This document shows, piece by piece, positions 13,204-64,000 of a stretch of 64,000 nt of DNA. Position numbers and translations under genes: made by a program. The stretch comes from Gammaproteobacteria bacterium (GTDB lineage Bacteria > Pseudomonadota > Gammaproteobacteria > Pseudomonadales > JADFDG01): assembly GCA_018262975.1 (NCBI GenBank), contig JADFDG010000011.1, forward strand, positions 46,195 through 110,194, read 5' to 3'. The notes below the pieces were generated by a model. The model was not told the origin of the DNA, ran no database searches, and saw only the letters and a program-made list of their open reading frames with translations. Position 1 is the first letter of the stretch, and each line of letters starts with the position of its first letter.

Positions 13204-13234
13204 CAAAAAAAGCCGCGCATCGCGCGGCTTTTTC
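13204..13234. terminator. Bidirectional rho-independent terminator between the convergent HIT and PilZ genes
   Basis: A-run, then 8-bp GC stem AGCCGCGC / GCGCGGCT with a 3-nt loop (13211-13229), then a T-run. A second perfect hairpin CCGGCAG-TG-CTGCCGG lies at 13244-13259. Confidence 0.65.
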
Positions 13235-13262
13235 ATTCGCAAACCGGCAGTGCTGCCGGCTC

Positions 13263-13613: not shown

Positions 13614-13621
13614 GGCGGGCC

Positions 13622-43610: not shown

Positions 43611-43686
43611 GGGGCTATAGCTCAGCTGGGAGAGCGCAACAATGGCATTGTTGAGGTCATCGGTTCGATCCCGATTAGCTCCACCA
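43611..43686 (+). tRNA. tRNA-Ala (anticodon GGC)
   Basis: Hand-folded cloverleaf: acceptor GGGGCTA/TAGCTCC with the G3:U70 Ala identity pair, D arm GCTC...GAGC, anticodon stem CAACA/TGTTG with loop A-T-GGC-A-T, T arm ATCGG-TTCGATC-CCGAT, encoded CCA. Confidence 0.9.
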
Positions 43687-43700
43687 CTCACGTAACGGAA

Positions 43701-43725
43701 AAGGCGCCTTCGGGCGCCTTTTTTC
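43701..43725 (+). terminator. Rho-independent terminator after tRNA-Ala
   Basis: AAGGCGCC-TTCG-GGCGCCTT followed by TTTTT. Confidence 0.75.
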
Positions 43726-43823
43726 GTTCTGGATCAAGGGTTTTCCATGTCTTTCAGGCGGTTGAGGATTCCGGTGGAACCCGACGGGACCCGTTGAGGT
43801 CCGGGGGTGCTGGGGGTTAGTTT

Positions 43824-43859
43824 GGGGGTAACGGGTTTTCTGCGAGCACTGTTACCCCC
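43824..43859 (+). promoter_or_regulatory. Perfect 9-bp inverted repeat abutting the integrase start codon
   Basis: GGGGGTAAC (43824-43832) ... GTTACCCCC (43851-43859) with an 18-nt spacer. The ATG follows at 43860. As RNA it would occlude the translation-initiation region. As DNA it could be a binding site. Confidence 0.35.
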
Positions 43860-45050
43860 ATGCCGCTATCTGACGCCGCTGTCCGCTCCGCCAAGCCAAA
43901 AGAGAAGCCGCAAAAACTCGCGGACGGTGGGGGGTTGTACCTCCTCATCACGCCTACCGGCAGCAAGTGGTGGCGGCTGAAGTACCGCTTCGACGGCAAG
44001 GAAAAGTCGCTGTCGCTTGGTGTGTATCCGGATACCGGACTCAAGGAAGCGCGCGAGAAAAGGGATGCGGCGCGCAAGCTTCTCGCGGCCGGTGTCGACC
44101 CGGGCGAGAACAGGAAGGCGGCGAGGGCCGCGCGCGCCCTGGAGGAAACAAACAGCTTTGAAGTCGTTGCCCGCGAATGGTTTGCCAAGCAGGAGTCCGT
44201 GTGGGCGGAGTCGCATAGCTCCAAGGTCATTCGGCGCCTGGAAGCCGATGTCTTCCCCTGGATTGGCAAGCGATCCATGGACAGCCTCACGGCGCCAGAC
44301 CTGTTGGCCGTCTTGCGGAAGGTCGAGGGCCGCGGCGCGGTAGACACCGCGCACCGCATCCTTCAGAACTTCGGTCAGGTCTTCCGCTATGCCGTCGCCA
44401 CGGGGCGGGCCACCAGCAATCCAGCGCCCAACCTCCGGGGCGCCTTGAAGGCCATCAAGCAATCCCACTTCGCTTCGCTCACCGACCCCAAGGATGTCGG
44501 CGCCTTGCTTCGGGCCATCGATGGTTACGAGGGGGCATACGCCACCAGGGCTGCCCTCCGGCTGGCGCCGCTGGTATTTGTCCGGCCGGGTGAATTGAGG
44601 GCGGCGGAATGGTCCGAGATCGACTTTGACCAGGCGGAATGGAACATCCCCGCCGCGCGGATGAAGCTCCGCATCCCGCACTTGGTGCCGCTCTCCCGGC
44701 AGGCCCTCGAGATCCTTCGGGACCTTCACAAGGTGACTGGAAAGGATCGCTACCTCTTTCCAAGTTCCCGGACGACGGATCGGCCGATGAGCAACAACGC
44801 AATCCTCGCCGCCCTGCGGCGCATGGGGTACGAGCAGGGCGAGATGACTGGGCACGGCTTTCGGGCCATGGCCCGGACGATCCTTGATGAGGTGCTCCAG
44901 GTACGACCTGACTACATCGAGCACCAGCTCGCGCACGCCGTCCGTGATCCCAACGGCCGGGCGTACAACCGGACCGCGCACAAGGCTGAACGGGCCAAGA
45001 TGATGCAGCGGTGGGCCGACTACCTGGATGGGCTGAGGGCTGATCGGTAA
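43860..45050 (+). CDS. int: Tyrosine-type site-specific integrase (P4/CP4-57-like, DUF4102 N-terminus)
   Basis: 396 aa. N-terminus LSDAAVRSAKPKEKPQKLADGGGLYLLITPTGSKWWRLKYRFDGKEKSLSLGVYP. Catalytic region ...HGFRAMARTIL...IEHQLAH...AYNR.... Adjacent to the tRNA. Confidence 0.92.
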   Translation: MPLSDAAVRSAKPKEKPQKLADGGGLYLLITPTGSKWWRLKYRFDGKEKSLSLGVYPDTGLKEAREKRDAARKLLAAGVDPGENRKAARAARALEETNSFEVVAREWFAKQESVWAESHSSKVIRRLEADVFPWIGKRSMDSLTAPDLLAVLRKVEGRGAVDTAHRILQNFGQVFRYAVATGRATSNPAPNLRGALKAIKQSHFASLTDPKDVGALLRAIDGYEGAYATRAALRLAPLVFVRPGELRAAEWSEIDFDQAEWNIPAARMKLRIPHLVPLSRQALEILRDLHKVTGKDRYLFPSSRTTDRPMSNNAILAALRRMGYEQGEMTGHGFRAMARTILDEVLQVRPDYIEHQLAHAVRDPNGRAYNRTAHKAERAKMMQRWADYLDGLRADR

Positions 45051-47065: not shown

Positions 47066-47290
47066 TCGATCATATATCTGCAGAGTTGTTTGTATGCCTA
47101 TTGGATCGCAAAGATCAGAGTTTTGTGCGTAAAGCGGCCGGAGATTGACGAGATCCTCTGTTGGTGTAGTTATGTAAATATATAGGTGCATCTAATATCC
47201 TTTCGACTAGAAAGGGTCGCATCAAATATACCCAGAGTAAAAAAATACTGTGATGGGTTTCCTGTGAGGTATTCACTGGAGATCCCACAA

Positions 47291-48037
47291 ATGCGAGTCA
47301 GACATCCAAACAACCGAAACCTTAGGCTGATGTATGGGTCGGAATGGCAGGGTCTGAGAGTAATCCAATATCCAAACGGCCTCATTGCGAACTACCTGGA
47401 GGACGTCAGTGAGTTGCTGGACGATACGGTCACGGATTACGCCAGATCGATCGTGCTTCGATTCGATCTGTGCATTCCGAATTTCCTGAGCCATGTGGAT
47501 TCCGCAGTAATCAGTCGATTTATCAGTGCAATGAAATCCAGACTCTCAGCAGATGCTGAGAAAAGGCGTCGATCTGGAGTCAGAATATATCCGTGCGAGC
47601 CCCGATTCGTTTGGGTCAAGGAGCAATGCCATTCGTCGGCCCCCCACTATCACGTCGCAATGACGTTGAACAATGACGCCTACTTCACGCTAGGGGCTAT
47701 CAGGCCTCGTTGGGAGGTGGAGTTGATGGCCAATGGAGATTATGGGGTAGAGCAGCGCCGCAATATGGTGGACAGGATCAGGGAGGCGTGGGCTTCAGCG
47801 CTTGGCGTTTCTTCTGCTGAGGCGGTTGGTTTGGTCCACATACCTGAAAACCCTGTTTATAAAATCGACCGGAACTCTCCGGAAGTGTTCGAGCAGTACG
47901 CGTGCGTCTTCTATCGACTTAGCTACTTCGCGAAGGCTGACACCAAACCGTATGGCGATGGCAGTCGCCACTTCGGGTGTAGTCGGCGCAGACTCGGTGG
48001 TTCCTTTTTGTGGGACTGCCCGCCAGATGAGGGATGA
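47291..48037 (+). CDS. YagK/YfjJ domain (inovirus Gp2 family) protein
   Basis: About 248 aa from the ATG at 47291 (GGAG upstream; the ORF-track GTG at 47186 is possible). ...SIVLRFDLCIPN..., ...RFVWVKEQCHSSAPHYHVAMTLNNDAYF..., ...IREAWASALG.... Confidence 0.55.
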   Translation: MRVRHPNNRNLRLMYGSEWQGLRVIQYPNGLIANYLEDVSELLDDTVTDYARSIVLRFDLCIPNFLSHVDSAVISRFISAMKSRLSADAEKRRRSGVRIYPCEPRFVWVKEQCHSSAPHYHVAMTLNNDAYFTLGAIRPRWEVELMANGDYGVEQRRNMVDRIREAWASALGVSSAEAVGLVHIPENPVYKIDRNSPEVFEQYACVFYRLSYFAKADTKPYGDGSRHFGCSRRRLGGSFLWDCPPDEG

Positions 48038-50152: not shown

Positions 50153-52015
50153 TCACCAGCCCGGATACTTCCGCCAGATCCGATCATTCAGTTCCTGATT
50201 GCTGCTGTACTCCCCGATATCCCAATCCCTGAAGGCATAAAGGTCCCCTGCGAGCTTCGCGATCACCTCGCGAAGCTCCAGGGGTTCCAGCCATTTCTGC
50301 GGAATCGATTTCACGCCGTAGAGAGCGCCCAGCAGGTTGCCGGTGATCGATCCGGTCGAGTCGGAATCGCCGTCGTGGTTCACCGCGAGCAAGACGCCCT
50401 CACGAAAGGTGCGGGCGACGAGGGCGCAGTAGACCGAGATGCCGAGTGCTTCCTCGGCGACCCAGCCTTGGCCGAGTTCGCGGATGGCCTGTTCCGGCGG
50501 CATCTTCATGTCCGCTAGGATCTCGGCACCTTTGAGCGAGTGGATGGCTTCCTGAGAATCTTCTTGTGGCTCAAGGCAGGCAATGGCCACGCGCAATGCT
50601 TCGCGGATGGACGCGCCATCGGTGATGGCCTGGATCATCACGGCCAGCGCACCGCCGGTGAGGTGGCCGGTCGGGTGTCCGTGCGTGATTGCGGCCAGTT
50701 CCATGCCGACCTTGAACGTCTGGTGCGCATCCCAGCGCTCGCGTGCTCCGTACAGTCCGACGGGGGCAACTCGCATCACGCCGCCGCACCCCTTGCTGTC
50801 GTTATCGGCAGTGATCTCGCCGGGTCCGCTGCGCAACGCGCTCAGGCAGGTGTTGCCCGGCGCGCGGCGACTGTGCAATTCGGGATGGAAGAACAGCCAG
50901 CCGTAACGTTCGCTGGGAACCTTGGGCCGGAGTGGCGGCGTTTCCTTCTGGGTTTCCAGCCAGCGTTGATAGGCGTGTGCTGTGACGCCTGGGTAAGTCG
51001 TCAGGCCCTTGAAGCAGCCCCTTACATGGGCGCGCAGCAGTCCCTCGGCAGTGAACAGCGTCATCTGCGTGTCGTCGGTGATCTTGCCGATACCGCCATA
51101 GGCAGGTGCGTAGTCGGTGAGGCCCTTGGGGCCGAAGCGGCACAGAATTTCGTCCCGCTTCATGAACTCGATGGGCGCGCCCAATGCATCGCCCACGGCA
51201 CCGCCGAGCAGGCAGCCGAGGAAGCGGTTCTGGACCGTGCGCGCCTGCTGGCGCTTGCGCGTCCAGGTCGGGATTGCCGCCGCAGGTGGGGGCAGATCCT
51301 CCGGCTCATCCGCCACAGGCTCGTCGGGGTCAGCGGAATACGCATGGTGCGCACCCAGCTCCATGGCGACCCTGGCCGCCGGCCGGGGCGCGAGGGTGCG
51401 ATGCCGGCGCCAGTCCGGCAGCACGGTGCCGTCGTGGCTGATGCCGATGCCCTTTTCCCAGTAGGAGAGATAAGCCTCCCCGGCTTCCGAGGCGTAGACG
51501 TTGCCCATGCCGGCCGAGCAGTCGAGGGCGTACTCCCAGTTGTTCTCCCGCATGCAGACGGCGCCCTTGTACGGGCGTTGTGCGAGGCCGCAAAGGTATT
51601 CACAGCTCTTCCCGTCCAGGGGCCGGTAGACGGCGACCCGGAGGCGCCCGTCCTCCCGGCGGGTCATGGCGGCGATCAGCTCGCCGTCCCGTTGGATGGT
51701 GACGAGCTTGCCCTCCAGGTCGACTGGACCGATCTCCAGCCACCAGGACTCGCCCTCAGCCGTGACGGTCTCGCGTGGGTCGTCGGGGCTCAGCAGTTGG
51801 GCAAGGCGGTCCATGGCCGGCTCGAGGTCCCGCCAGCCGGTGGCCAGATCCCGGCTGCGCTCCTGAAGGCCCTGAAGGAGCAGGGCGAAGGGGAGGTGGC
51901 CGTCGGAGGTCAGGGCTTCCTGTACCTGGGCGGCCGGCACGGGGTAGGGGATGTCGGGCAGGCCGTACTGTTGGATGAGGTCGATCTTGAGGTGCAGGTC
52001 AGCAAGGCTGGGCAT
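50153..52015 (-). CDS. ADP-ribosylglycohydrolase family domain fused to an unknown N-terminal domain of about 300 aa
   Basis: 620 aa from the ATG at 52015 (MPSLADLHLKIDL...). C-terminal half: ...FLGCLLGGAVGDALGAPIEF..., ...ITDDTQMTLFTAEGLL..., ...AITHGHPTGHL..., ...GDSDSTGSITGNLLGALYG.... No clear SD, so the start is uncertain. The ORF track extends to 52258 through Pro/Arg-rich sequence. Confidence 0.75.
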   Translation of the reverse strand: MPSLADLHLKIDLIQQYGLPDIPYPVPAAQVQEALTSDGHLPFALLLQGLQERSRDLATGWRDLEPAMDRLAQLLSPDDPRETVTAEGESWWLEIGPVDLEGKLVTIQRDGELIAAMTRREDGRLRVAVYRPLDGKSCEYLCGLAQRPYKGAVCMRENNWEYALDCSAGMGNVYASEAGEAYLSYWEKGIGISHDGTVLPDWRRHRTLAPRPAARVAMELGAHHAYSADPDEPVADEPEDLPPPAAAIPTWTRKRQQARTVQNRFLGCLLGGAVGDALGAPIEFMKRDEILCRFGPKGLTDYAPAYGGIGKITDDTQMTLFTAEGLLRAHVRGCFKGLTTYPGVTAHAYQRWLETQKETPPLRPKVPSERYGWLFFHPELHSRRAPGNTCLSALRSGPGEITADNDSKGCGGVMRVAPVGLYGARERWDAHQTFKVGMELAAITHGHPTGHLTGGALAVMIQAITDGASIREALRVAIACLEPQEDSQEAIHSLKGAEILADMKMPPEQAIRELGQGWVAEEALGISVYCALVARTFREGVLLAVNHDGDSDSTGSITGNLLGALYGVKSIPQKWLEPLELREVIAKLAGDLYAFRDWDIGEYSSNQELNDRIWRKYPGW

Positions 52016-52029
52016 GAAGTGAGTCGGTC

Positions 52030-52071
52030 CTGTCGCGGGTGATGGCCTATTGCGCCACCGCCCCGCGACAG
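52030..52071. promoter_or_regulatory. Perfect 10-bp inverted repeat just upstream of the ARH-fusion gene
   Basis: CTGTCGCGGG (52030-52039) / CCCGCGACAG (52062-52071) with a 22-nt spacer, 15 nt from the proposed ATG at 52015. Confidence 0.3.
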
Positions 52072-52272
52072 TCGTTGTCGCAGAGCAAGACCATTCGCAT
52101 CGATGTAGAGGATGTCGAAACGGCGGGTGGCCCAAAGCATGCCGGGCGTAACCGGGACGTCGAGTATCTGGAGAAAATCTGGCAGGCTCACATGGAGGGC
52201 TGTACCAAACATCGCCTGAAGTGATATCTACTATCCGTGCAACATCAACCGTGCTCACAGGGCCATAGACCC

Positions 52273-52539
52273 ATGCGTAAAGTTGTAAATTTCATATGCG
52301 CAGTCCTCATGGCCGGCGTCGGAATCTACCTCGCGATTTCAATTGGCATACTTGTTTTCATATTCACTGGGCAACTACAGGTCGGCAATGACTTGGGCGA
52401 CGGCAATGTCGTTCCGTCAGTATCAACTCTGTTATTTTTTCAGGCGTCTTGTATTTTGTTCATGGCGATCTTGGTTCTGATACGAGCCAAGGTTGGGAAA
52501 CAATATGATTTCAAATTCCTACGGCCGAGAGGCATCTAG
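52273..52539 (+). CDS. Small two-TM membrane protein
   Basis: 88 aa from the ATG at 52273 (MRKVVNFICAVLMAGVGIYLAISIGILVFIF ... LLFFQASCILFMAILVLI). AT-rich codon usage like the surrounding island. Confidence 0.4.
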   Translation: MRKVVNFICAVLMAGVGIYLAISIGILVFIFTGQLQVGNDLGDGNVVPSVSTLLFFQASCILFMAILVLIRAKVGKQYDFKFLRPRGI

Positions 52540-52642
52540 CAATGTCTCTCAAGGATGTTGCTCTTTTCAACTGCGTAGGCTACGCAGCGCTACTGTTCAG
52601 GCCACGAAGCGCCAGCGGCAAAGTTCCTACAGCGGATCTTTC

Positions 52643-53461
52643 CTAGATCATCCCGGCAGCTAACAATTGACGCTCGATTTCTAGCCAGGCCTTCTTGTTG
52701 TATTTCGGCGCAAGAGCACCAGTCCAGAGCCTGTGGAAATCATTGTGGTTCTTTCTCTTTTGACAATCGCAATGCTTGGCTCCGCCTCTACGAAGCTCGC
52801 ACTGCTCGTCGTGCTGTTCTTCTACTCTCTTACGCGCATTCGATACTTGTTTGCCTCTATCCTGGGCTAGTTCGCTCTGTATTCTCTGATCTTCTAGAAA
52901 AAGGTCTGGCACGCCTGCATGAAAATCATCAGGGTCAGAAGCTGGCGCGTCATGTCCATTAGCGATGTCCGTCTCGTCTGGTTCAGGGTAGAGGGATTCC
53001 AAGACATCCGGTGGCACGGGGAGAAGACTCTTCCCTATGCTTTTTATCGTCGAAATGGGCACAACTTCCAGAAACGTTTCAGTATTCGAGCGGTGAACAT
53101 TATTCTTTGCGTCGTGCCATTCCGATGTACGAGAAACGACAGCGTTGGCCATCCCATCTGATTTGTTCGGATAGATTCGCAACAGGCAATCCGTTCTGCA
53201 GGGCGCGGCATCGCTGGTCGCGTGATTATCGAGCCAATAACTAGGTCCAAGATCGAATGTGGCCTCAATGGAAGTGACATCAAATCTTACGAGTTTCATC
53301 GCAAAGGCTGCTACGCAGTCAGGTACGTCAGACGAAAACGTTCCAGAATTAGAGCGATCAACGTTATGGGCAACTATATCAATCCCGCAAGTCGTAACCA
53401 CGAAATCTTTGTGAAAAGTGCCATCTTCGCCGTCATACCGCTCTCTAACGTACATTTCCAT
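52643..53461 (-). CDS. Hypothetical protein (272 aa) immediately downstream of brxL
   Basis: ATG at 53461 with GGGGTG upstream. Same strand as and 60 nt after the brxL stop. Acidic middle and basic Cys/His-containing C-terminus (...GGAKHCDCQKRKNHNDFH...). No recognised domain. Confidence 0.5.
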   Translation of the reverse strand: MEMYVRERYDGEDGTFHKDFVVTTCGIDIVAHNVDRSNSGTFSSDVPDCVAAFAMKLVRFDVTSIEATFDLGPSYWLDNHATSDAAPCRTDCLLRIYPNKSDGMANAVVSRTSEWHDAKNNVHRSNTETFLEVVPISTIKSIGKSLLPVPPDVLESLYPEPDETDIANGHDAPASDPDDFHAGVPDLFLEDQRIQSELAQDRGKQVSNARKRVEEQHDEQCELRRGGAKHCDCQKRKNHNDFHRLWTGALAPKYNKKAWLEIERQLLAAGMI

Positions 53462-53521: not shown

Positions 53522-55561
53522 TTAATCAACCCCCAGCGCCTTGAACACAGCATCCACCGGATCAGCATAAAAGCTGGTCTGGAATTTTGTGAACAACTCC
53601 GCCGGAATCGTCGGAATATCCTTGGCGCTTGTCATCGGCATTGCCACGCGCTTTCCGCCCGCATCAAAAGCCACCTGCAGGCACTCGGCAATACTCTCGA
53701 CAGGCGTAACGCTGCCTCCCAAGCTCATGTCCCCCAGAACCACCAGCTGCGCTTGCGCAGGTCGCCCCATCAGGCCTGATGCGAACGCCACCAGGCTAGG
53801 TAGCGCCATGTGAGTGAGAGGGCCGGTGTTTTGCAGTTCAACCACGTGCAAGTGAAAGTCGTGATCTAAGACCTTGGCCGAAGCACTGATCCGCGCGGCA
53901 TTCGCCTTGAAGTAATCAAATGCGATCTTCACCTGCTCCTTGGCAGCGCTGGAGTTCCACAAGCCTGAGGTGGCCAATTTTCCAGTGCCCTTCGTGACCT
54001 GTAGCTCTATCCGGTACACCCCGGGCATTCCCTTGCTGCTCAGGCCGATCGTGTGGATAAAGCCTGGCTTGCCGGGGCCCTCAGGAATCAGACCGCCACC
54101 GCCTTGTTCCTTCACGGTCACAAAGCGTTCTTCCAGTGTCTGGTTGTCGATGTAGCTGAAGTGCACATCGTAAAACTCCATCCCGCCGATTTTCTTCAGC
54201 TGCTCCTTCACGCGGCGGCGCACCTGCAGTGCGTACTCCAGGCACAGGCGGACGTCTTCCTTGGTGAACTGGTCATGAGGGAAGAGCAGCTTGAGAAGGC
54301 CGGAAACCGTCTTGCGAACCGCAATGACATCCCGCTGATTCAGGTTGTTTCCCAACTTGAAGTGCTTGTCGATTGCATCGGCAAAACTGCGCTTGCGCAT
54401 TTCCCGAAAGAACTCAGCCAGGTAGTCCACGATCAGGCCGTACCTGTCGGTGAAATACTCAGGCCGCATCTTCGGGATCTCCCATCCTGGGATGTAGGCA
54501 TGAAAGCGGTCGAAGAACGCGGAATCGATCATTGCCTCAGGGAACGGCGCCAGCAGGTGGCTGGTTTTGACCAGGGACTCCACACTCTGGTTGATGTTGC
54601 CAACGAACACCATCGAGGCTGAGGCTTCCATCTGTTCACGGCCACGGGCAAAAGAACCCGAAGCCATGAAATCCTTCATAATCTGGACGCCGTCCTTTTC
54701 CTTGAAATTGATGCCGGCAACTTCATCAAATGCCACAACGTCCCACAGGCCAACCAGGCCAATGCGACGGCTGCTCATGTTGTAGAAAAGGTTGGCTACC
54801 GTCGTCTGGCCGCCGGAAACCAGAATGCTGTTCGGTGAGCATTCCTTGTAGATGTGGCTCTTGCCGGTTCCGCGTGGGCCCAACTCACAAACGTTGTAGT
54901 TGTTCTCTACGAAGGGAATCATGCGGGCGAGCAGATGCCACTGCACGGATTCATCCAGCGTAGATGGCTCCATTCCAATCGAGCGAATAAGTGCTTCCCG
55001 CCACTGCACAGTCGTTAATGCCGCGCGGCCGGCGAACAACTCCGGCATGTTCATGTTGGGCATTTGAATCGGCTTTAGAAGCGTCACGCCGAAGGGAGAT
55101 CCGGACTGACCTTCTTCGTGGTAGTAACTCAGCGTTGCGATTACCCATATGCCACCAACAAGCAGCTTCTCGTATTCCTTGACGATGCTGGCCGAAATCT
55201 CGGCGTCCTTGATCCCGAGGTTGCTGAAGGCCGCCTCATAGCGGTCCTTCTTTTCATTCAGGCGAACTGTGACGCGGTCGATAACCTTGTAAGTTCCACG
55301 CTCACGCACCAGTGATTTGACCTTCTCCGCCTCATCGGGGCGAACATAGTTGTCTGCCAGAACGTTCTTGACGTTCTTTAGTCCCTTTTCAATGATCTCT
55401 GGATCATCGGATGCGCAATACATGCCAAGCAAGTACTCAAGAACATACACCGGCACATTGGCGCCTTCCTTGATCAACTTGGTCAGGTCTTTGCGCACCA
55501 CGCGGCCGGCGAAGTGCTCGTTCAGCAGCTGATCGAGATCCTTGTCCGTATCAATAGTCAT
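53522..55561 (-). CDS. brxL: BREX system Lon protease-like protein BrxL
   Basis: 679 aa. N-terminus ...LNEHFAGRVVRKDLTKLIKEGANVPVYVLEYLLGMYCASDDPE... is highly characteristic. Central P-loop ...LGPRGTGKSH.... Lon-protease-like C-terminus. Follows pglZ. Confidence 0.9.
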   Translation of the reverse strand: MTIDTDKDLDQLLNEHFAGRVVRKDLTKLIKEGANVPVYVLEYLLGMYCASDDPEIIEKGLKNVKNVLADNYVRPDEAEKVKSLVRERGTYKVIDRVTVRLNEKKDRYEAAFSNLGIKDAEISASIVKEYEKLLVGGIWVIATLSYYHEEGQSGSPFGVTLLKPIQMPNMNMPELFAGRAALTTVQWREALIRSIGMEPSTLDESVQWHLLARMIPFVENNYNVCELGPRGTGKSHIYKECSPNSILVSGGQTTVANLFYNMSSRRIGLVGLWDVVAFDEVAGINFKEKDGVQIMKDFMASGSFARGREQMEASASMVFVGNINQSVESLVKTSHLLAPFPEAMIDSAFFDRFHAYIPGWEIPKMRPEYFTDRYGLIVDYLAEFFREMRKRSFADAIDKHFKLGNNLNQRDVIAVRKTVSGLLKLLFPHDQFTKEDVRLCLEYALQVRRRVKEQLKKIGGMEFYDVHFSYIDNQTLEERFVTVKEQGGGGLIPEGPGKPGFIHTIGLSSKGMPGVYRIELQVTKGTGKLATSGLWNSSAAKEQVKIAFDYFKANAARISASAKVLDHDFHLHVVELQNTGPLTHMALPSLVAFASGLMGRPAQAQLVVLGDMSLGGSVTPVESIAECLQVAFDAGGKRVAMPMTSAKDIPTIPAELFTKFQTSFYADPVDAVFKALGVD

Positions 55562-55576: not shown

Positions 55577-58204
55577 TCAAAAGAAATCGTCAGTGAAGGC
55601 CAGGTCAATCGTGACGCGATAGCGCTCCAGCTCGGTATTCATGTCTTTGTCGCGAATGATCATGAAGTAGTCCTTCTGGCGGTCAAAGTCTTTGCCAATC
55701 AGGGATAGCCGAATCTGCTTCATGCGCTCGGTCATTGAGTCAGTCGCGCAATCGAAGGTAACGACTTCTTCGCTTGAAACGGCCTTGTTGTCTTCATAGA
55801 TCGCCACGGCAACGGTAATTGGCAGTACTAGCTCGCTGACCGATTCCGTCTGGATAAGATCAAACCGCTGGATATGGGTAACCATCTTCAGCGATGACTT
55901 TGGCGAGATCACACCAACCTTTCTCTTTGTTCGCTTTTCGGCTTTCTCACCCCTCAGTTGGTTCACGGTAATAACCGGAACCACGATCTCCTGAGGCATC
56001 GCGCCGCCATGAACAAAACGGGCGCCACCAACAAAGTGGAAGCGGTTGGCCCCCTTGGGGATCCAGAACTGGGTATCCGAGCTGGTTCCGGCGGTCAGCT
56101 TGGTTGATCCGCGCCAAACATCCTTGGCGGCAGGCAGGCTGTGAGCGATCACATAGCGCTTCTTGCTTTTGATAGTGTTCTCTGGCTTCTCCACCAGGCT
56201 CGTGCGATCCGCTGCTTCCATTTTGCTTTGCTGAAACAAAAAGCCATGGTCAGCGGTAATCAATACCGTGCTTGTATTGAAGTGCATAAGTATCTTTTTT
56301 GTCAGTTCATTCAGCTCTTCAATGGCGTATTCGACGTGCTGAAAAGTATCTGACTCGGATTGGCCGCCACTATCACTTCGATCATCAATCACGTTGTGAT
56401 AGACATAGACCAACTGCTGGTCCTTGAGTGCTTCACGGCCAGCGTCGCGTGACCACTCCTTGATCTGATCGGCAGTGACTGCCATGCCATGGTACTGGGC
56501 GAGGATGGCATTCCGCGCTTGGGTTCCTGCGGTCGACTGGCTATCTACGAATACGTTGTCACCGCCGTCCGCGCGGTATTCGAGTGTCTTGTGGGGCAGC
56601 AGGGAGGCCATGCCCAATGTGGTGTAGCTAGGCAGGACACCCAGTTGACTCGTAAGCGTTGCTTCGCTGTAGCGCTTCTGGTTGATGCGCTCGCAGAGCT
56701 CAACAGCCGCTTCATACCGGAACGCATCGCTGATGATCACGACAACACGCTTGTTGCGGTGGCTATCTAGTTGAGGGCGAACAAAGTGCTCGTAAAAATC
56801 CTGCTGGCTCGGTATTCCCGACAAAGCCCAATGATCCAGCCGATGTTCAGACTCGATACGGTCACTCCAGCAGCGGCCTAGTTGGTCCAGGTACCAGGAG
56901 GCGTAACACTGTTCAACCGCGTCATCGAGTTTCTTGAGCAACTCCACATGCGCAAGCCGGGAAGCCGCAAAGTAATGCCGGTAAGACGTGTCAAATCGGT
57001 AGAGATCGCTTTGGTACGCCTTGTACAACGACTCCGTGCTGGAGAAGTGGAATCCCTCCACATGGTCGTGTCGTAGCGTGAATAGATCTATCGCTGCCGA
57101 CAGTGCCGAGTAGAGAAGGCGGTACTTGCGCCGTATTTCGTCGTCCTTATGACGTGAAGCCCAGTAGTTGTCGAGCCGGTCTGAAATGATTCGCGTAAAT
57201 TGAGACAGCTCTCTGGCTGAAGCGTCAGGGATGAACTTTGTAAGGTCTGAAACAATTTGTCGTTCAACGGCCTGAAAGGTTGCCGAATTGGCCAATGTCT
57301 CGACAGGGATATCTCGGATTCTCTCAGGAATACGCAGTGCATTACTGACCCAGTCGGATACGGCGTCATAGGACTTGTAGTGACGGGAGCTGTCACGCCA
57401 ACGCGATAGCAGCGAGCGGGACGTTGCGCGCGCATTGGCTGATGGCATTACGGTGGATGTAGCCCAGCCCGGGACATCGCCGATATTTTCGCAAAATGCT
57501 GTTGCGAGCAGGCGGATCAGGAAATGGCTGAAGTTGAATGGCTTCTCGCCATTGACCTCCTCGAGACTTGCCGGGTAGCCCACCTCTTCCCGGAGTGACT
57601 GCAGCAGGGTGGGCATCAGGCCGTATTTGTACAACTCATCTATGGCGACCGGGTTCGCATCGAGACCGTGTTCACCTTGAACAGCGGCATCGGCCAGTGT
57701 GCAGAGGAGGGTGGAAATATCCGAAGCGCTTGCACCGATGACGACAGCAATCATGGCCAGATCCAGCGCCTCGGGACTGTCCGTTGGCTGGATCAGGCGC
57801 TTCAGACTGTTTGTCCTGGCTTTACTGCTAAGGAATCGTTCACGTTTGGCCAGATGCGCGCGCAGGCTTTGCTGTTGCAATCCAAAGTCATTGAAGATCA
57901 GCGACATGCGATCGGCGTAGAAGCTGCGCGAATAGAGCTTGATGTCCAGAAGCCAGTCATCATTAGCTTCTGGTTCGGCGATTGGAAAATACAGCAGGTA
58001 CTTGCCTTCCTTGTCCTCGCATTCCAGCTTTAGCTTGAGGCCGAATGTGGACTGACCATGCATGTTCAATATATTCACGCCAGGCAGATCAAGCTGGTTC
58101 AGTTCGTCGGCAAAACTCTGCTCCGCGTCGTACCAGAATACGATGCGATGTCCTTCCACAAAGAAGGCACGCTTGAGGCCTTGGGTCAGTTGTTGGGTGT
58201 CCAT
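55577..58204 (-). CDS. pglZ: BREX alkaline-phosphatase-superfamily protein PglZ
   Basis: 875 aa from the ATG at 58204 (MDTQQLTQGLKRAFFVEGHRIVFWYD...). PglZ core ...VVVIISDAFRYEAAVEL...LGVLPSYTTLGMASLLPH...TADHGF.... The start overlaps the upstream stop (TAATG). Confidence 0.9.
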   Translation of the reverse strand: MDTQQLTQGLKRAFFVEGHRIVFWYDAEQSFADELNQLDLPGVNILNMHGQSTFGLKLKLECEDKEGKYLLYFPIAEPEANDDWLLDIKLYSRSFYADRMSLIFNDFGLQQQSLRAHLAKRERFLSSKARTNSLKRLIQPTDSPEALDLAMIAVVIGASASDISTLLCTLADAAVQGEHGLDANPVAIDELYKYGLMPTLLQSLREEVGYPASLEEVNGEKPFNFSHFLIRLLATAFCENIGDVPGWATSTVMPSANARATSRSLLSRWRDSSRHYKSYDAVSDWVSNALRIPERIRDIPVETLANSATFQAVERQIVSDLTKFIPDASARELSQFTRIISDRLDNYWASRHKDDEIRRKYRLLYSALSAAIDLFTLRHDHVEGFHFSSTESLYKAYQSDLYRFDTSYRHYFAASRLAHVELLKKLDDAVEQCYASWYLDQLGRCWSDRIESEHRLDHWALSGIPSQQDFYEHFVRPQLDSHRNKRVVVIISDAFRYEAAVELCERINQKRYSEATLTSQLGVLPSYTTLGMASLLPHKTLEYRADGGDNVFVDSQSTAGTQARNAILAQYHGMAVTADQIKEWSRDAGREALKDQQLVYVYHNVIDDRSDSGGQSESDTFQHVEYAIEELNELTKKILMHFNTSTVLITADHGFLFQQSKMEAADRTSLVEKPENTIKSKKRYVIAHSLPAAKDVWRGSTKLTAGTSSDTQFWIPKGANRFHFVGGARFVHGGAMPQEIVVPVITVNQLRGEKAEKRTKRKVGVISPKSSLKMVTHIQRFDLIQTESVSELVLPITVAVAIYEDNKAVSSEEVVTFDCATDSMTERMKQIRLSLIGKDFDRQKDYFMIIRDKDMNTELERYRVTIDLAFTDDFF

Positions 58205-59613
58205 TAACTCGGCGCCTGATCCTGTCGAATGGTGATGGCTTTCCAGCCATATTTTTCTTTTGCTTTGTCGTATGACATCACCGCAATGCCTGCGACGATG
58301 GTGCCTGTTGTGATGCCTTCGCACATTCCGGGTGGAACGAACAGGTCATTGTTTACGAATCCAAATCCCCTATCAGTGACCCGTATTTCACCCCTGAAGG
58401 AATTTATGTCAGGCGAATCAAAGGGTGCGATTGATTCGGCAGAGGAGACATCCTTCGAATCACTGCCCATATCACAGAGAATCCTGATGTATGTGCCCGG
58501 CGACGGAATTCTGCGATTCGGGAAAACACCTTTCCGGACAGAGAACGTTTGGCTTCTGTCTACGTATACGAAGGCGCCTTTGCCTGATTCGTGAACAGAC
58601 TGAACCACGCCAGAAAAATAGGTCGGGTCTGCCATGGCGACTTCATTGGCACCGACTGCCAACCCGGCGATGTACGCGTCGAGATCTTTGGTGTTCAGGG
58701 ATCCATCAAACCAGGCAGAGGACGTCAGGCCTACGACCTTGTCCTTCAATTGCCAGCCGTTCTGGTTATAGATGTCACAGAGTTTGATCAGCACTTTGGA
58801 CGCGTATTCATGGTCTCCGGTTTCGGCAAGCAGCTCTGCCATCTGTACCAGACCAGGAATACTGAACTTTGGATCGTGGGCGCAAGTTAGTCCGAATGCA
58901 GTCAAGGCAATTGCTTTCTTGGGATCATCCAGATAGGTCGATGCGAGGCCGAACCACGCCCAGGACTCGCCACCTTTCCTCTTCAATACCGAAGAATAGG
59001 CTTCACGAGCTTTATCAATTCGCCCTGCGGCCTTGAAGATCCTTGCCATGTCATAGTCGAGCCAAACCTTTCCCTGCGGGGAATCCTTTGCACATTCCTG
59101 GGCATGCTTCAGGAGCGCGATAACCCTTGCAGGATCAAGTTGACTGGTGCCGACCTGCTGGAGGTAGTTGGCTGCCACCATGTGCGCCAGTCGAGTCACT
59201 AAGCTCGGGGATTCACCCTTTTCGGTCTTGAAGGGCTCGTAGTCATTCGAGCTGAATATTGAGCGGCCGCTGCGCAAGATAAACAGGCAGATCGGCTCGC
59301 AGAACTTTCCTATACCCCGGAAGAGGTTCCATAGTCTGAAATCAATGAGTTCGTTGGGAAGCGTTATCTGCAGTGTCGATATGCGAGAAGCCCAAAAATC
59401 AATCTGCTTCTTCTCAAGGGTTGTCGGGGCAATGTTTTCGCGCGCTGTGATTGGCTCAATAAGCTGCTTTAAAGCGGAATAAATCACCCAGAATAGCGAA
59501 GTCTGGAGATATGTGTTTCCGGGATCTTGTTGAAGAGCCGGGAAGCCCTTCTGCCAGGCGGCCTCAAAGTCGCCTGTCGCTTTGATGTCCCTTATTTCGC
59601 TGATGATGCTCAT
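58204..59613 (-). CDS. Helical-repeat (TPR-like) protein with two C-terminal cold-shock/OB-like modules; BREX-embedded, unknown function
   Basis: 469 aa. The N-terminal 320 aa or so is helical with TPR-like stretches (...MARIFKAAGRIDKAREAYSSVLK...). aa 333-378 read GVVQSVHESGKGAFVYVDRSQTFSVRKGVF. aa 406-462 read FRGEIRVTDRGFGFVNNDLFVPPGM...G, a CSD-like GFGF signature. ATGA and TAATG overlaps link it to its neighbours. Confidence 0.6.
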   Translation of the reverse strand: MSIISEIRDIKATGDFEAAWQKGFPALQQDPGNTYLQTSLFWVIYSALKQLIEPITARENIAPTTLEKKQIDFWASRISTLQITLPNELIDFRLWNLFRGIGKFCEPICLFILRSGRSIFSSNDYEPFKTEKGESPSLVTRLAHMVAANYLQQVGTSQLDPARVIALLKHAQECAKDSPQGKVWLDYDMARIFKAAGRIDKAREAYSSVLKRKGGESWAWFGLASTYLDDPKKAIALTAFGLTCAHDPKFSIPGLVQMAELLAETGDHEYASKVLIKLCDIYNQNGWQLKDKVVGLTSSAWFDGSLNTKDLDAYIAGLAVGANEVAMADPTYFSGVVQSVHESGKGAFVYVDRSQTFSVRKGVFPNRRIPSPGTYIRILCDMGSDSKDVSSAESIAPFDSPDINSFRGEIRVTDRGFGFVNNDLFVPPGMCEGITTGTIVAGIAVMSYDKAKEKYGWKAITIRQDQAPS

Positions 59614-62378
59614 GGAAGCCCCTTGATGGCTTGCTCGAGTTTCACGATTACTTCTTCAGTTGTCGCCCTGATCACGCGCAAGGAGCTGATCATTCCCTCC
59701 TTGTTGGCGTTGACCTCAAGTTCGACTCCATCGTCACCCACTGAAAATACCAACTGCGCGCGATAGGCAGTTTCCTTGCCATCCACAAGCGTGAAGCCAG
59801 CCTTTTGCAAAGGCTCAGTGAGTGCATCTACGGCTTCTGCCAATGCACTGTCTGCCGGCTTGAACGGGCGGATCAGCAATTGGCCAACCGCCATCCGATC
59901 AGCAACAGAGCCTTCCAGATACGTGACGTTGCTGACGGATAGGCTCTTGTCGTAATGGAGGCGGAGCTGAACATGCGCGTCGGCCTGCCTGGATGAGACT
60001 GTCAGTACGACCTGAAAAACATGTTCCCGCCAGACAGTGATCGCCCATGCAGATCCACTGAGCCTATCCATCAGTTCCAGAAGCAGAGGTAAAAGCTTAA
60101 TGTCGCTGAACCCTGCGGGCATGGGCAGCGAGGCTTCTCGTTCCGTTGGCTGCCGTGCCTTGTCGTAATGCAGTCCTTGTTTGATCGGAAAGCTTCCGAT
60201 GTGCAGTGTTGAGGAACGGCTAACCGCCGCATTGGTTAGCGGATTCAGGAAAGGTAGCTGCCGTATGACCAACAGCTCATCCGCGCAAACGGATGCCGTA
60301 TACAGCCAGCGGAAGTATTCCTGATTGTTTGGCGTCTCGCTGGAGGCGCTGCGCGCGGCAGAGATCCAGACCGAGGGCCAGCGGCGCCCTTGGGCGCGGT
60401 GCAACGTCAAGGCATGGGCGGGCCTGATGCGGGCCGCGGAAACATACCCTTGAGACTGAAATAGCGAATACTCAAATTTGTCGTATTCCAGCTTTGCTTG
60501 CTTGTACTCGGGTGCGTCCTTTGCCGGCAAAGCATTCTTGCGGGCGTCCAGTATTGGCTTTGCCAGCCGCCGCGACAGTACCTGGAGTGCAAGTACCTGA
60601 TCGACTGAAATTTCAGGTTCCTCTGCTTCATAGAACTCGACGAGATAGCGGAACGTCACTTGCCCTAAACGTGGAACCCGGCATTTCGCGCGCTGGAAGC
60701 GAATCACCGTGGCCGCTTTACGCCCTCGTAACTCTATGGTGTAGGTTTCTATGTCCTCATCAATATCATCGATGAGACCAATTTCACCGGCATTGATCCA
60801 GCGGACCGTCTTACCAGAGTGAGGATCATACTCGTCTTCAAGAATCGGAGTTCTCGAGTGGAAATCCACCCGATCACCGCAGCCAAGGGCGGTAGGGCTT
60901 TTGTGGCCAAGAATCCTTGTCTTTACCGAGCCATTCACCCGGCTTGTTTGCAGGTGGGTTGCGCAGAGATAAATGGATTCAGCCGCAACGTGGTGAATAT
61001 CCGGTTCCCATTTGCGGGCGGAATCGCTCTCCAATGTTTCAAGGCGATGCCCGGTGATACGCGGGAGCCTGTTGAAGCGGTCACTGTCGATACTGCCGAC
61101 CAGGTGGGCCTGCAATGAGTTCAGTGCATCGTCTTTGTCAGCGAGAATCTGTTCATTGAGTACATGGGTCACAACATCTTGACCCATGGCGTTGATCGAT
61201 ATTTCGGAGGTCAATGAGCGTTGTAGAGAGCCTCGTGTCAGTTGGTACTGGTCACCGATGACAATAAACGGTTGGTTGTGATTCTTCATTACAGTAAGGA
61301 AGTCAGTGACGAGTCGACCCGATCCATAACGTCGATCAAGCACCTCAAACTCTTCATCGCTCATGAGGTGAGCATCGACCAGAACGGGAATTTTCCCGTC
61401 CAGATTCAAATCCACATTCACCTTGTGGAGGGCGAATTTCCGGTCATTTACCTTCTCGAAGCTGCTCGGGATCAGTTCGTAAAGCCAGGTGTATATCGAA
61501 ACAGCGGGTACGGAAGGATTGGCGTAGTTGGCCGAAAGTCGAGCGCTCGGCGTTAGCAGAACCACATCCAACCCTTCCTGCTTCAGAAGATCGACCAGGT
61601 AAGGGAACAGGAATCGCTTGCCTGTCGAGGCCATGCCAAGCAGGCGGAACATGCCGCTGTTGGTCTTCCGCCACGTGGAAAAGGCGGTGAGTGCATGTGC
61701 TTGCGAGCGCGTCAGTTGCTGGCCCTGTTGCACACCATGGCTGGCCGGCCCTGCGAGCTTCCGTGTGTCTATGCCGCCTGCCGGCACGAACGACTCGAGC
61801 CCCAGCAGGGAGGCAAGACGGTTCATGTCGTCAGCAGTAAAGTGGATCTCCCGGCTGACGATGGCCTCCAGGTCACGGACGACATGCGAAAAGTCGCTGA
61901 TATAGAACCAGGGCTTGATAGATCCCGGAATCGTGCCGCTATCAAAGCTAATGTTGCCGTGAAAGGCGACGAGGGCTGCGGCATGGCCCCAATTGCAAAT
62001 GTTGTTGAGCTCGGAGAAGTTGCGGCTGAGAAAATCCATCACCGCCTTCTTGTTGATTCGTAGCTGGACAAGCGGGTTAACGCTGGAGCCCCCCTTCACT
62101 TGCGTTGGCTCAGCAGCATTCGGGGGCTGGATCAGCCAAGGGCCGCTCTCAGAAAATTTCAGATCTCCGCTGAAGTCTTTGAAGTCGATGATGATGACCG
62201 CATTGGGCTTGATCACCAGTGCGTCCAGCTCCCGGCTGCCAACGAAGAAATTGCCCAGCAGCAACCAGTTCTGCGAGGTGGCTGTGCAATGCGCATCCAG
62301 CAGGTCGAACAGGCTGTCGAAAGCCTTGTTCTCGTGCGTGTGCTCGAATGGGTTGCCGCGAAACGCCCTGAGTCCCAT
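59610..62378 (-). CDS. NERD nuclease-related domain fused to an SF1 (RecD/AAA_30 + UvrD_C_2-like) helicase, with an unknown C-terminal domain; BREX-embedded
   Basis: 922 aa. NERD-like aa 15-125 (ENKAFDSLFDLL...GSRELDALVIKPNAVIIIDFKDFSG). Walker A GMASTGKR (61617-61637). Walker B position reads VLVDAHLM (61371-61382). IVIGDQYQL (aa 372-380). LTLHRAQGRRW (aa 657-667). aa 715-922 or so are unassigned. Starts 6 nt after the pglX stop. Confidence 0.75.
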   Translation of the reverse strand: MGLRAFRGNPFEHTHENKAFDSLFDLLDAHCTATSQNWLLLGNFFVGSRELDALVIKPNAVIIIDFKDFSGDLKFSESGPWLIQPPNAAEPTQVKGGSSVNPLVQLRINKKAVMDFLSRNFSELNNICNWGHAAALVAFHGNISFDSGTIPGSIKPWFYISDFSHVVRDLEAIVSREIHFTADDMNRLASLLGLESFVPAGGIDTRKLAGPASHGVQQGQQLTRSQAHALTAFSTWRKTNSGMFRLLGMASTGKRFLFPYLVDLLKQEGLDVVLLTPSARLSANYANPSVPAVSIYTWLYELIPSSFEKVNDRKFALHKVNVDLNLDGKIPVLVDAHLMSDEEFEVLDRRYGSGRLVTDFLTVMKNHNQPFIVIGDQYQLTRGSLQRSLTSEISINAMGQDVVTHVLNEQILADKDDALNSLQAHLVGSIDSDRFNRLPRITGHRLETLESDSARKWEPDIHHVAAESIYLCATHLQTSRVNGSVKTRILGHKSPTALGCGDRVDFHSRTPILEDEYDPHSGKTVRWINAGEIGLIDDIDEDIETYTIELRGRKAATVIRFQRAKCRVPRLGQVTFRYLVEFYEAEEPEISVDQVLALQVLSRRLAKPILDARKNALPAKDAPEYKQAKLEYDKFEYSLFQSQGYVSAARIRPAHALTLHRAQGRRWPSVWISAARSASSETPNNQEYFRWLYTASVCADELLVIRQLPFLNPLTNAAVSRSSTLHIGSFPIKQGLHYDKARQPTEREASLPMPAGFSDIKLLPLLLELMDRLSGSAWAITVWREHVFQVVLTVSSRQADAHVQLRLHYDKSLSVSNVTYLEGSVADRMAVGQLLIRPFKPADSALAEAVDALTEPLQKAGFTLVDGKETAYRAQLVFSVGDDGVELEVNANKEGMISSLRVIRATTEEVIVKLEQAIKGLP

Positions 62379-62384
62379 GGTCTG

Positions 62385-64000
62385 TCAGCCTTCCTGGACG
62401 TCCTTGTCGCCGGTTATGGCTTTTACCTCCGCGAGCAAGTCTCCGAACTTGCCGTAGTTCACCTTCACGCCATCATCCAGATCCAGACTGATGCGCTGGT
62501 CGGCGTAGTGACGGAGTTTCTCGTCGAAGGTCGCGAGTTCAGCTTGCTGGTTGTGAAGGGTGGCGAGTTCCTTTTCCAGGCGCTTCTTCTCAGCAGTACT
62601 GGCACTGGCGTCGATGTCTTGTTCGAGCTTGTGTGCGTAGGTGCTGAGCTTTGCAGTCAGCGGGATAACGTATTCGGTGCGCATGCGGGCGAGCGTGCCT
62701 TCGTTGTAGCGGTGCAAGTAGACGAGGCATTCGAAGGCGTTGTGTTTGCCGGAGCTGAACAGCCAGTAGATCGGGCGTTTTTTGTAGGTCTTGAGGTGGT
62801 CTTTATAGAACTGCGTGCTCAAATAGCGGCGGATTGAGTCCAGCGCGGACTCGCCGCGTTTGGGTTTAATGGCATGGAGGCACAGGCTCTCCGCGACGAA
62901 ATCGAGATTTTCCTGCAGGTGTTCGTCTCCCCAGACCACGCGGACAAACTCGCGGAACCGGTTGGTTGCGTCATCGGCGAACCATTCCTGGTCGGTTAGC
63001 GGCAGGATTCCGTCGTTGTCCGGCGCGAAGCGCGGTGATGGGATTTGGCTGAGGTAGTCCTGGAGCGTTTCGCCCTGGCTGGCAAGAATCAGCCCCGGCT
63101 TATCCAAGGAATATCGACCCATCATGCAGCCGATGGCGTAGGACACCAGTTCTTCCATGGTGTCGCACTGAAGCATGGTTTCTAACTCTGCGTCGCTCTT
63201 GTCAACACCGTACCGGTAGTAGGGGTTTGCGTTAAGTGATACTTCATGCAAGGGAGCATGCGGAGATAGTTCGTCCTGGAGACCGTACATCGATATAAAT
63301 GTGTCGTTTATCTCAATCTCAATAGCTTTTAGTTTCGATACGTTTTCTTTCCATTGATTCATGCAATTTACGTATGCATGTTCAAGTTTTTCGTGTGATT
63401 CTCCGGCAGGAATCAGAGGGCTGCATTTGAAGTTCCACGAGTATTCGAAAGAATCCCAGTCTGAATCTGAAATATCTACGGCAGTATTTCTCAGCTCAAT
63501 GATCCGCCTTTGGATGCCATCCGCAAACGGCAGGTTAAGAATATGTCCAAGCTTGAAATCTAAAGTTGGGGCAAGCATCTTTAAAAAGTGGTTGGTCACA
63601 GCGCTATTCAAGAACGCTTCCTCAACAGAGGTTTCGTCTGACGTCGTGGAGAATCCCATGGGGCCTTTGGCATCGAACATAAATCCGTGAGGCACGCTTC
63701 GCACGGCAAAGCTCCCGCTCGATATTCCAGACCATGTTAATCCTTTTCTGAATGCATAATCTCCGTTGTAGTTATGCGATCTAATTCGCCCAGTGCTTGG
63801 GTCGGAAAACACCCTTAGTTCCTCTCCATCATGGAACCAATTAACTACATACTCAAAGTTTCCAGACCAACGTCTAAACTCGCCACCTTTGATGTAGGGG
63901 AAATATCGCTTCTCGCTCTTCGTGGCCTCGGCGTTACTTCTTAAGTTGAATCCAATGCTCTTGATGGCAACTTCGTGCCACAGACGTAGGAATAGATCGT
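62385..64000 (-). CDS. pglX: BREX-1 adenine-specific DNA methyltransferase PglX, C-terminal part (5' end outside window)
   Basis: The frame stays open to the right edge (hand translation upstream of 63812 gives ...FPYIKGGEFRRWSGNFEYVVNWFHDGEELR...). The C-terminal region ...KKRPIYWLFSSGKHNAFECLVYLHRYNEGTLARMRTEYV... is typical of PglX. Followed by pglZ and brxL. Confidence 0.85.
   Translation of the reverse strand, partial: DLFLRLWHEVAIKSIGFNLRSNAEATKSEKRYFPYIKGGEFRRWSGNFEYVVNWFHDGEELRVFSDPSTGRIRSHNYNGDYAFRKGLTWSGISSGSFAVRSVPHGFMFDAKGPMGFSTTSDETSVEEAFLNSAVTNHFLKMLAPTLDFKLGHILNLPFADGIQRRIIELRNTAVDISDSDWDSFEYSWNFKCSPLIPAGESHEKLEHAYVNCMNQWKENVSKLKAIEIEINDTFISMYGLQDELSPHAPLHEVSLNANPYYRYGVDKSDAELETMLQCDTMEELVSYAIGCMMGRYSLDKPGLILASQGETLQDYLSQIPSPRFAPDNDGILPLTDQEWFADDATNRFREFVRVVWGDEHLQENLDFVAESLCLHAIKPKRGESALDSIRRYLSTQFYKDHLKTYKKRPIYWLFSSGKHNAFECLVYLHRYNEGTLARMRTEYVIPLTAKLSTYAHKLEQDIDASASTAEKKRLEKELATLHNQQAELATFDEKLRHYADQRISLDLDDGVKVNYGKFGDLLAEVKAITGDKDVQEG

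Follow-up and report, generated by a model that had tools for sequence, protein, structure and literature searches.

A gene pair matching the TOTE/PDC-M16 conflict system between pglX and pglZ of a gammaproteobacterial BREX type 1 operon

Two genes between pglX and pglZ

Why do two additional genes stand between pglX and pglZ of a BREX type 1 operon, and what do they encode? The question arises from a 64,000-nucleotide (nt) stretch of a Gammaproteobacteria bacterium genome (GenBank assembly GCA_018262975.1, contig JADFDG010000011.1, positions 46,195 to 110,194), which as a whole is called the window here. On its minus strand, gene A (59610..62378) encodes 922 amino acids and gene B (58204..59613) encodes 469, each from an ATG start. 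Both are real genes, with homologues at 30-100% identity (n=70 for A and n=92 for B). Together they are almost certainly a TOTE conflict system, listed in PADLOC as candidate PDC-M16. A would be its effector (PDC-M16A), as judged from PADLOC, Pfam and homologues, and B its sensor (PDC-M16B), as judged from PADLOC, Pfam and an AlphaFold2 (AF2) model.

The identification is carried by profile matches that run along both proteins. A matches the PADLOC PDC-M16A model PDLC04474 over residues 1-918 (model positions 1-913/917, E=0, 1237 bits). B matches the PDC-M16B model PDLC04480 over its full length (5-469/472, 5.6e-174). PADLOC calls PDC-M16 where adjacent genes match the A and B hidden Markov models, and here the two matching genes overlap by 4 nt. 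In Pfam, B is matched by DUF7017 (5e-31), S1CSD-TOTE-2 (1e-17) and TPR_14 (8.7e-7). The TOTE-specific Pfam families are S1CSD-TOTE-2 (PF22707), TBP-TOTE (PF22721) and DUF7017 (PF22860).

TOTE stands for TPR, OB, TBP and Effector (Aravind, Iyer & Burroughs 2022, as cited in PMC12458937). The features by which such a system is recognised are all found in the pair: TPR or helical repeats, an OB fold fused to the TPR protein, a TBP-like domain in the partner, a NERD effector linked to the TBP protein, and an operonic linkage that is conserved across genomes. PDCs are 145 untested single- and multi-gene candidates, drawn from cassettes that BREX, DISARM and type I restriction-modification (R-M) systems carry within them (Payne, Hughes, Fineran & Jackson 2024, bioRxiv 10.1101/2024.01.29.577857). 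In the supplement of that study, cassette CAS_00083 carries the entry "Assign as candidate PDC-M16".

A preliminary description of the window, made from its letters alone, had proposed that the pair matched no named defence system. It had also said that a profile search placing both proteins in a named two-gene system would count against this. The full-length PDC-M16A and PDC-M16B matches, together with the TOTE Pfam families, are such a placement, and the claim of novelty falls. The system is already catalogued, and was found through the same embedding signal that the preliminary description had noticed. Its companion suggestion, a two-component module that senses nucleic acid, fares better and is supported. 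Literature searches on PDC-M16, DUF7017 and TBP-TOTE returned nothing, and broader searches on TOTE and NERD returned as relevant only the bioinformatic TALON/ARMADA preprint (PMC12458937).

How does the pair compare with related systems? As TOTE is described in the citing paper, all four signature parts are held in common, with TPR and S1/cold-shock-domain (CSD) OB folds in one protein and TBP plus effector in the neighbour. The two-gene operon is conserved likewise, so far as that account goes, and the window pair appears as a flavour with a NERD and superfamily 1B (SF1B)-like effector rather than as a difference in kind. With PDC-M16 the likeness extends to the embedding in a methylation-based host operon, and there is no difference; that system is catalogued, not characterised. 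TALON, as outlined in PMC12458937, shares the TPR-CSD and TBP components and a NERD-type PD-(D/E)xK nuclease. By the same outline, TALON uses a YprA (SF2) helicase with an inactivated RNase H domain and is largely confined to Chloroflexota, whereas the window pair fuses an SF1B fold module with NERD and TBP in one protein and belongs to gammaproteobacterial hosts.

Nhi and other single-protein nuclease-helicases also fuse a nuclease to an SF1 helicase fold and share the defence context. The window pair differs from them in its obligate TPR-OB partner, its TBP-like C-terminus and its degenerate ATPase motifs. A Nhi-like single-gene system was rejected because the obligate partner is conserved and the PADLOC models match A only as PDC-M16A (MkoA is marginal, E=0.0098). 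PADLOC-DB v2 presumably includes Nhi models.

Domains of the effector and the sensor

The AF2 model of A has a mean pLDDT of 84.8, and Pfam places NERD (34-121), a weak AAA_30 (222-380) and UvrD_C_2 (654-705) along the protein. The NERD domain, a PD-(D/E)xK nuclease fold, takes up residues ~1-195 (61794..62378, minus strand; Pfam NERD 4e-7, above the gathering cut-off). Its putative active site consists of E16, D52 and D65-x-K67. Across 38-62 homologues, D52, K57, D65, F66 and K67 never vary, and conservation of E16 is at least 90%. The invariance of D52, D65 and K67 supports an active nuclease, and the site in A appears intact and is putatively active.

The C-terminal region of A, which the preliminary description had left as an unknown domain, is a predicted tandem TBP-TOTE domain (residues ~755-919; 59622..60116, minus strand), as indicated by Pfam, hhalign and the AF2 topology. 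The model contains two helix/four-strand/helix repeats, at 760-835 and 844-919, each with the order (S1)-H1-S2-S5-H2. When the C-termini of A proteins of the window's type were aligned with the strongly scoring tandem TBP-TOTE stretch of the sister clade, hhalign gave a probability of 98.5% (E 3e-15) over 160 columns.

Between these two domains lies an SF1B helicase-fold core of the Dda/RecD2/Pif1 kind (residues ~222-710; 60249..61715, minus strand), recognised from Foldseek and motif conservation. Foldseek aligns the core with T4 Dda (3upu, E 2e-19, TMt 0.70), and RecD2 and Pif1 also match. A catalytically active SF1B enzyme has GxxxxGK[ST] and a DE motif with the catalytic Glu; A has the fold and departs from both motifs. 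Motif I is G248-MAST-G-K254-R255, with R at position 255 in 59 of 62 full-length homologues and K in the other 3. Motif II is VD335-A336-H337, with the A and the H at least 90% conserved. Motif III is GD376xYQ379 and motif VI is H660-R-A-Q-G664.

These departures belong to a clade. The A proteins found beside the B family split into two types, NERD-type, which includes the window, and DUF4145-type. Motif I is GMASTGK-R/K in the NERD-type and GYAGTGKT in the DUF4145-type. Motif II is VD-A-H, VE-A/S-H or LN-S-H in the former and DEaSM in the latter, motif III is GDPYQL versus GDxAQLPPV, and motif VI is HRAQG versus HKAQGSEW. Pfam AAA_30 scores follow the same division (~20 bits versus ~80 bits). 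The TBP-TOTE match is weaker and in one stretch in the NERD-type, and tandem with E ~1e-40 in the DUF4145-type. Since the Walker A Ser/Thr and the Walker B catalytic Glu are lost in the NERD clade, the helicase-fold core is probably not a conventional motor, and it is doubtful on motif grounds that any member of this clade has a working one. The "RecD-like helicase" of the preliminary description is thus right as to fold, which Foldseek places in SF1B, while the ATPase motifs that a helicase would need are degenerate in the NERD-type clade. With such motifs, the K254 mutation that it proposed may tell less than was assumed.

B is modelled by AF2 with a pLDDT of 93.1, as a helical solenoid followed by two beta-barrels (330-394 and 403-460). 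The helical-repeat, TPR-like region covers residues 1-326 (58636..59613, minus strand), from AF2 secondary structure and TPR matches in the PDB, and contains an invariant signature, E216-S-W-A-W220. The two OB/cold-shock-like barrels, OB1 (330-394) and OB2 (403-462), lie at 58228..58626 on the minus strand and are identified by Pfam S1CSD-TOTE-2 and AF2. When the C-terminal fragment of B is searched alone, S1CSD-TOTE-2 matches at 2e-18 and covers 405-462. OB2 carries an RNP1-like R-G416-F-G-F-V420 and an RNP2-like L-F425-V-P-P, both conserved among 59 homologues, in which G416 is invariant and F417, G418, F419, V420 and F425 are at least 90% conserved. We take these motifs to resemble the RNP motifs of CspA. 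The conserved RNP1-like GFGFV of OB2 supports binding of single-stranded nucleic acid.

Pfam, AF2 and Foldseek thus agree with the domains first assigned to the pair, namely NERD and SF1 in A and TPR with two OB folds in B. Sequence and profile searches of the PDB with A and B returned only generic TPR, Dda or Pif1 pieces. Foldseek searches of the PDB found only SF1B helicase cores for the A model and only TPR proteins for the B model, with a full-length analogue of neither.

Does a given B always go with the same A? A comparison of two loci, one from Photobacterium (L010, 7237-11398) and one from Shewanella (L016, 7155-11428), suggests that it does not. Their B proteins are 80% identical. Their A partners are of different types, NERD-type with degenerate helicase motifs in Photobacterium and DUF4145-type with canonical motifs in Shewanella, and are ~22% identical over the helicase region. 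Such closely matching B proteins beside different types of A fit B as a sensor and A as an exchangeable effector. The sequences look as though a conserved sensor gene has kept its place while the effector gene beside it was exchanged. The ATPase degeneracy of the NERD clade and this swapping have no mention in the sources consulted here, in which the primary review (Aravind 2022) is represented by the paper that cites it.

A further observation concerns the DUF4145-type effectors, whose DUF4145 we take to be HEPN-related. At locus L014, the N-terminal ~240 residues of a 1201-amino-acid type I HsdR (12205-15810) align with positions 1-245 of PDLC04472, a PDC-M16A model. Apparently this restriction subunit carries, as a fusion, the same N-terminal segment that Pfam assigns to DUF4145 in TOTE effectors of that type.

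Embedding in BREX and autonomy of the pair

Is the pair a part of BREX or a passenger in it? The flanking genes are bona fide PglX, PglZ and BrxL of BREX type 1 by both Pfam and PADLOC, and all three are present and co-oriented in the window. On the minus strand, pglX (62385..64000) is represented by its C-terminal ~537 codons and encodes the BREX type 1 methyltransferase (PADLOC PglX PDLC02521, 4e-173, model 740-1171/1174). Its stop codon is at 62385-62387, its frame is open to 63998 and the gene runs past the end of the window. The 475-amino-acid pglX open reading frame (ORF) that had been listed from an internal GTG (63812) is a listing artefact, and a pglX ending at 63812 was rejected because the same frame stays open up to the window edge. 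Downstream of the pair, pglZ (55577..58206, minus strand) matches Pfam PglZ (6.6e-58) and PADLOC PglZ over its full length (2.7e-297). Its true start is the ATG at 58206, since the 875-amino-acid product matches PADLOC PglZ over 1-855/855. The Lon-like protease gene brxL (53522..55561, minus strand) follows, with Pfam BrxL_N, BrxL_ATPase and Lon_C and a PADLOC BrxL match at E=0.

The five genes are tightly packed. A 6-nt gap separates pglX from A, the A stop and the B start share ATGA (59610-59613, a 4-nt overlap), the B stop and the pglZ start share TAATG (58202-58206), and 15 nt lie between pglZ and brxL (55577 end, 55561 start). The ORF map and the junction sequences agree exactly with the gene order and the four spacings first described. 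A scan for promoter- and terminator-like sites at the minus-strand junctions found none, with counts not above shuffled expectation. Co-transcription of all five genes, which the preliminary description had proposed, is therefore plausible: the tight coupling and the lack of junction signals are consistent with it and fall short of proof. An orthologous, Pseudomonas-like locus (L001, 59% identical) has the order brxR-brxA-brxB-brxC-pglX-A-B-pglZ-brxL. In that locus a 59-amino-acid ORF is called between B and pglZ (14205-14384); the window has no counterpart, and B overlaps pglZ directly.

This wiring invites the reading that the pair is an auxiliary nuclease of BREX. The NERD protein would supply the cleavage that BREX lacks, or would back up PglZ on BREX-marked or nicked DNA, with B as an adaptor. 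The overlapping start and stop codons speak for this, as does a slot that is conserved in five BREX loci of Pseudomonas, Halomonas and Vreelandella. Against it, the canonical six-gene BREX works without the pair, as was reportedly found by Goldfarb and colleagues in 2015. The same pair also accompanies type I R-M, lies in transposon islands and stands alone. One of the slots, at L005, holds three other, unrelated cassettes and looks like a hot spot for cargo. Auxiliary nucleases embedded in BREX have been argued to be a general back-up layer (PMC12839542), which lends the reading some further support. On balance we regard it as quite improbable.

The wider distribution bears directly on this point. 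GTDB species genomes scanned with a B profile gave 20 loci, all in Gammaproteobacteria, and exact look-ups of A homologues gave seven further locus records. These records (L001-L027) represent 25 further distinct loci, with L002 and L010 on the same Photobacterium contig and L025 and L026 near-duplicates; contexts were classified by tblastn, Pfam and PADLOC. A lies directly upstream of B, with codons overlapping or abutting, in L001-L010, L012-L016 and L018-L027. L017 is degraded and A was not detected there, and the L011 contig, at 3.8 kb, does not reach far enough to show A. Identities of A and B to the window pair run in step (59/59, 59/63, 52/52, 32/38, 32/32 and 31/34%). The constant order and matched identities argue that the two genes form one unit. 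At E <= 1e-10, 1.84 billion proteins contain 984 representatives of the B family, clustered at 50% identity.

The contexts of this unit vary. The same pglX|pglZ slot is occupied in the five loci already mentioned (L001 and L003-L006; A 52-59% identical), of which L001, L003, L005 and L006 have BrxL 84-94% identical and the contig of L004 stops before brxL. At L002/L010, L007, L008, L009, L014, L016 and L027 the pair lies between hsdS and hsdR or beside type I R-M. At L013 it follows brxL, beside an integrase. At L023 (A 73% identical) it is outside a BREX locus and divergent from it. L025 is a Tn3-associated island with GmrSD_N, UvrD and PIN toxin-antitoxin pairs, L012 and L014 lie near Zorya ZorC, DruH or PD-T4-1-like genes, and L018 is among aldolase, ThiC and phosphate-transporter (PHO4) genes.

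This range of contexts, from the BREX slot through R-M and the Tn3 island to L018, argues that the pair is autonomous and not a BREX part, and we consider it quite likely that it is an autonomous defence module. The preliminary description had asked whether the pair occurs outside BREX, and it does, with type I R-M, on a Tn3-linked island and among housekeeping genes. Its alternative of a BREX accessory or specificity factor does not survive, as orthologues 55-73% identical lie outside BREX. As a specificity factor the pair was rejected for its occurrence in non-BREX contexts.

At L005 (Vreelandella sedimenti, 2707-14422), the interval between pglX and pglZ contains LeoBC and LeoA (Eleos), the TOTE pair, a DUF262/HEC-05-like gene and a PDC-S26-like gene. 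Four cassettes stacked in one slot indicate that the pglX|pglZ junction is a hot spot for cargo, in agreement with its earlier description as a site for independent defence modules.

The same distribution can be read in another way, with the pair as a guard similar to PrrC. It would stay silent under BREX or type I R-M, or monitor them, until a phage anti-restriction protein such as an Ocr-like mimic or a Stp-like peptide triggered abortive infection. The pair does turn up repeatedly within BREX and type I R-M operons, oriented as their genes are, and both host systems are known Ocr targets. Precedents exist in PrrC/EcoprrI and PARIS (discussed in Payne et al. 2024 and PMC12839542), and it may be speculated that the TBP-like DNA-binding domain could bind a DNA mimic. 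BrxU (GmrSD-type) and PARIS in BREX and PrrC in EcoprrI are, like the window pair, independent modules that sit within a methylation-based system and share its orientation. However, they belong to unrelated protein families, and there is no sign that the window pair senses modified DNA, Ocr or a failing host system. No domain points to recognition of PglX, PglZ or Hsd, and the same B sensor goes with different host systems and different effectors. Outside BREX and R-M operons there are the 55-73% identical orthologues and a 31%-identical NERD-type member, and L018 lies among housekeeping genes. These non-embedded orthologues weigh against both the guard and the BREX-auxiliary readings as obligatory modes, and we think a guard unlikely.

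A third reading takes the pair away from phages altogether, as an addiction or toxin-antitoxin-like pair, or a DNA-processing pair, that stabilises its island. A nuclease and a tightly coupled partner on mobile islands, beside integrases, Tn3 and PIN toxin-antitoxin pairs, would suit this, and no phenotype has been published. Yet defence genes make up the great majority of the neighbours (BREX, R-M I, Eleos, GmrSD-like, Zorya ZorC, DruH and PD-T4-1-like). A sensor with swappable nuclease or HEPN-like effectors is typical of immune systems, and sizes of 922 and 469 amino acids are unlike those of classical toxin-antitoxin pairs. This reading is very improbable.

The best explanation overall, and one we hold to be probable, is that the pair is a complete TOTE system, a self-contained and mobile candidate anti-phage module carried as cargo in the BREX slot of a tRNA-Ala island. 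We infer its defence activity from genomic context. For how such a module might act we offer a specific mechanism only tentatively. A and B would form a complex, as their translational coupling and co-inheritance suggest. B would be the sensor, its tandem cold-shock-like OB folds binding single-stranded nucleic acid made during infection and its TPR solenoid docking onto A. A would be the effector. Its TBP-like tandem may bind duplex nucleic acid (double-stranded DNA or an RNA:DNA hybrid) or form the interface with B; RNase HIII has a TBP-like substrate-binding domain, a precedent for duplex binding. The SF1B-like core, which lacks the Walker A Ser/Thr and Walker B Glu, would be a single-stranded DNA clamp or a nucleotide-binding switch and not a motor. 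Once the A-B complex is engaged, the NERD PD-(D/E)xK domain would cleave DNA, and the outcome could be either direct restriction or abortive infection. Embedding in BREX would provide co-expression and co-transfer without an obligatory functional dependence.

A sharper version can be stated for the NERD-type TOTE systems as a group. An ATPase-dead SF1B clamp or switch, together with the CSD and TBP sensors, would recognise a specific intermediate of phage replication or transcription, such as a junction of single- and double-stranded nucleic acid or an R-loop, and license the NERD nuclease. Where it is nested in BREX or type I R-M, it would form a second layer, triggered by preference when the methylation-based system is blocked. 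We regard this as distinctly unlikely in that exact form.

Several observations weigh against our preferred reading of the pair as a complete, self-contained TOTE system or against parts of it. In window A, Pfam TBP-TOTE reaches only 18.7 bits (1.3e-3), below the gathering cut-off of 27; orthologues score 34-48 bits, and the 59%-identical orthologue P0013 is above the cut-off (2e-11). A keeps the Walker A Lys and motifs III and VI, so that unusual catalysis is possible and the loss of ATPase activity is a matter of motifs. With B overlapping pglZ and a gap of 6 nt between pglX and A, some functional coupling to BREX is conceivable. Searches of the PDB by sequence, profile and Foldseek found no solved structure of either protein. 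Literature searches found no experiment on any TOTE or PDC-M16 member, and Aravind 2022 is known here through the paper that cites it.

The locus is a clean natural case of defence nested in defence, with TOTE/PDC-M16 joined to BREX by overlapping codons. Two separate predictions of TOTE exist, one from domain analysis and one by guilt-by-embedding. The locus opens no new category of system, adding instead a tidy example and two side observations. As a compact and well-delimited gammaproteobacterial representative, it lends itself reasonably well to a first functional study. If the ATPase-dead reading is true, immunity would rest on a motor-less "helicase-fold sensor" whose DNase or HEPN-like effectors can be swapped, which would be a new mechanism.

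The island that carries BREX and the pair

How the BREX operon and its passenger arrived is suggested by the plus strand farther left in the window. ARAGORN finds a tRNA-Ala(ggc) at 43611-43686, followed by a P4-type integrase at 43860-45050 (Pfam Arm-DNA-bind_3, Phage_int_M and Phage_integrase). The tRNA-Ala and integrase (43611..45050) are likely the left border of an island that carries BREX and the pair. In 2-kb blocks, GC content is ~64-71% in the backbone up to ~46 kb, 51% at 46-48 kb and 52-55% from 52 kb. The backbone value and a BrxL 84-94% identical to that of Pseudomonas and Vreelandella loci point to a host that is probably a high-GC gammaproteobacterium. The GC drop, together with the tRNA-Ala and the integrase, argues that the BREX and TOTE genes are cargo of a tRNA-integrated island of horizontal origin.

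Two more genes lie downstream of brxL on the minus strand and may be further cargo of the island (50153-53461). The nearer (52643-53461) is a 272-amino-acid ORF with no Pfam or PADLOC match. The farther (50153-52258) encodes a 701-amino-acid protein with an ADP-ribosylglycohydrolase in its C-terminal half and an unassigned N-terminus of 347 residues; it has no PADLOC match. Within the 51%-GC patch, the plus strand encodes a protein with a YagK/YfjJ C-terminal domain (47186-48037), and members of this family are typical of integrative elements.

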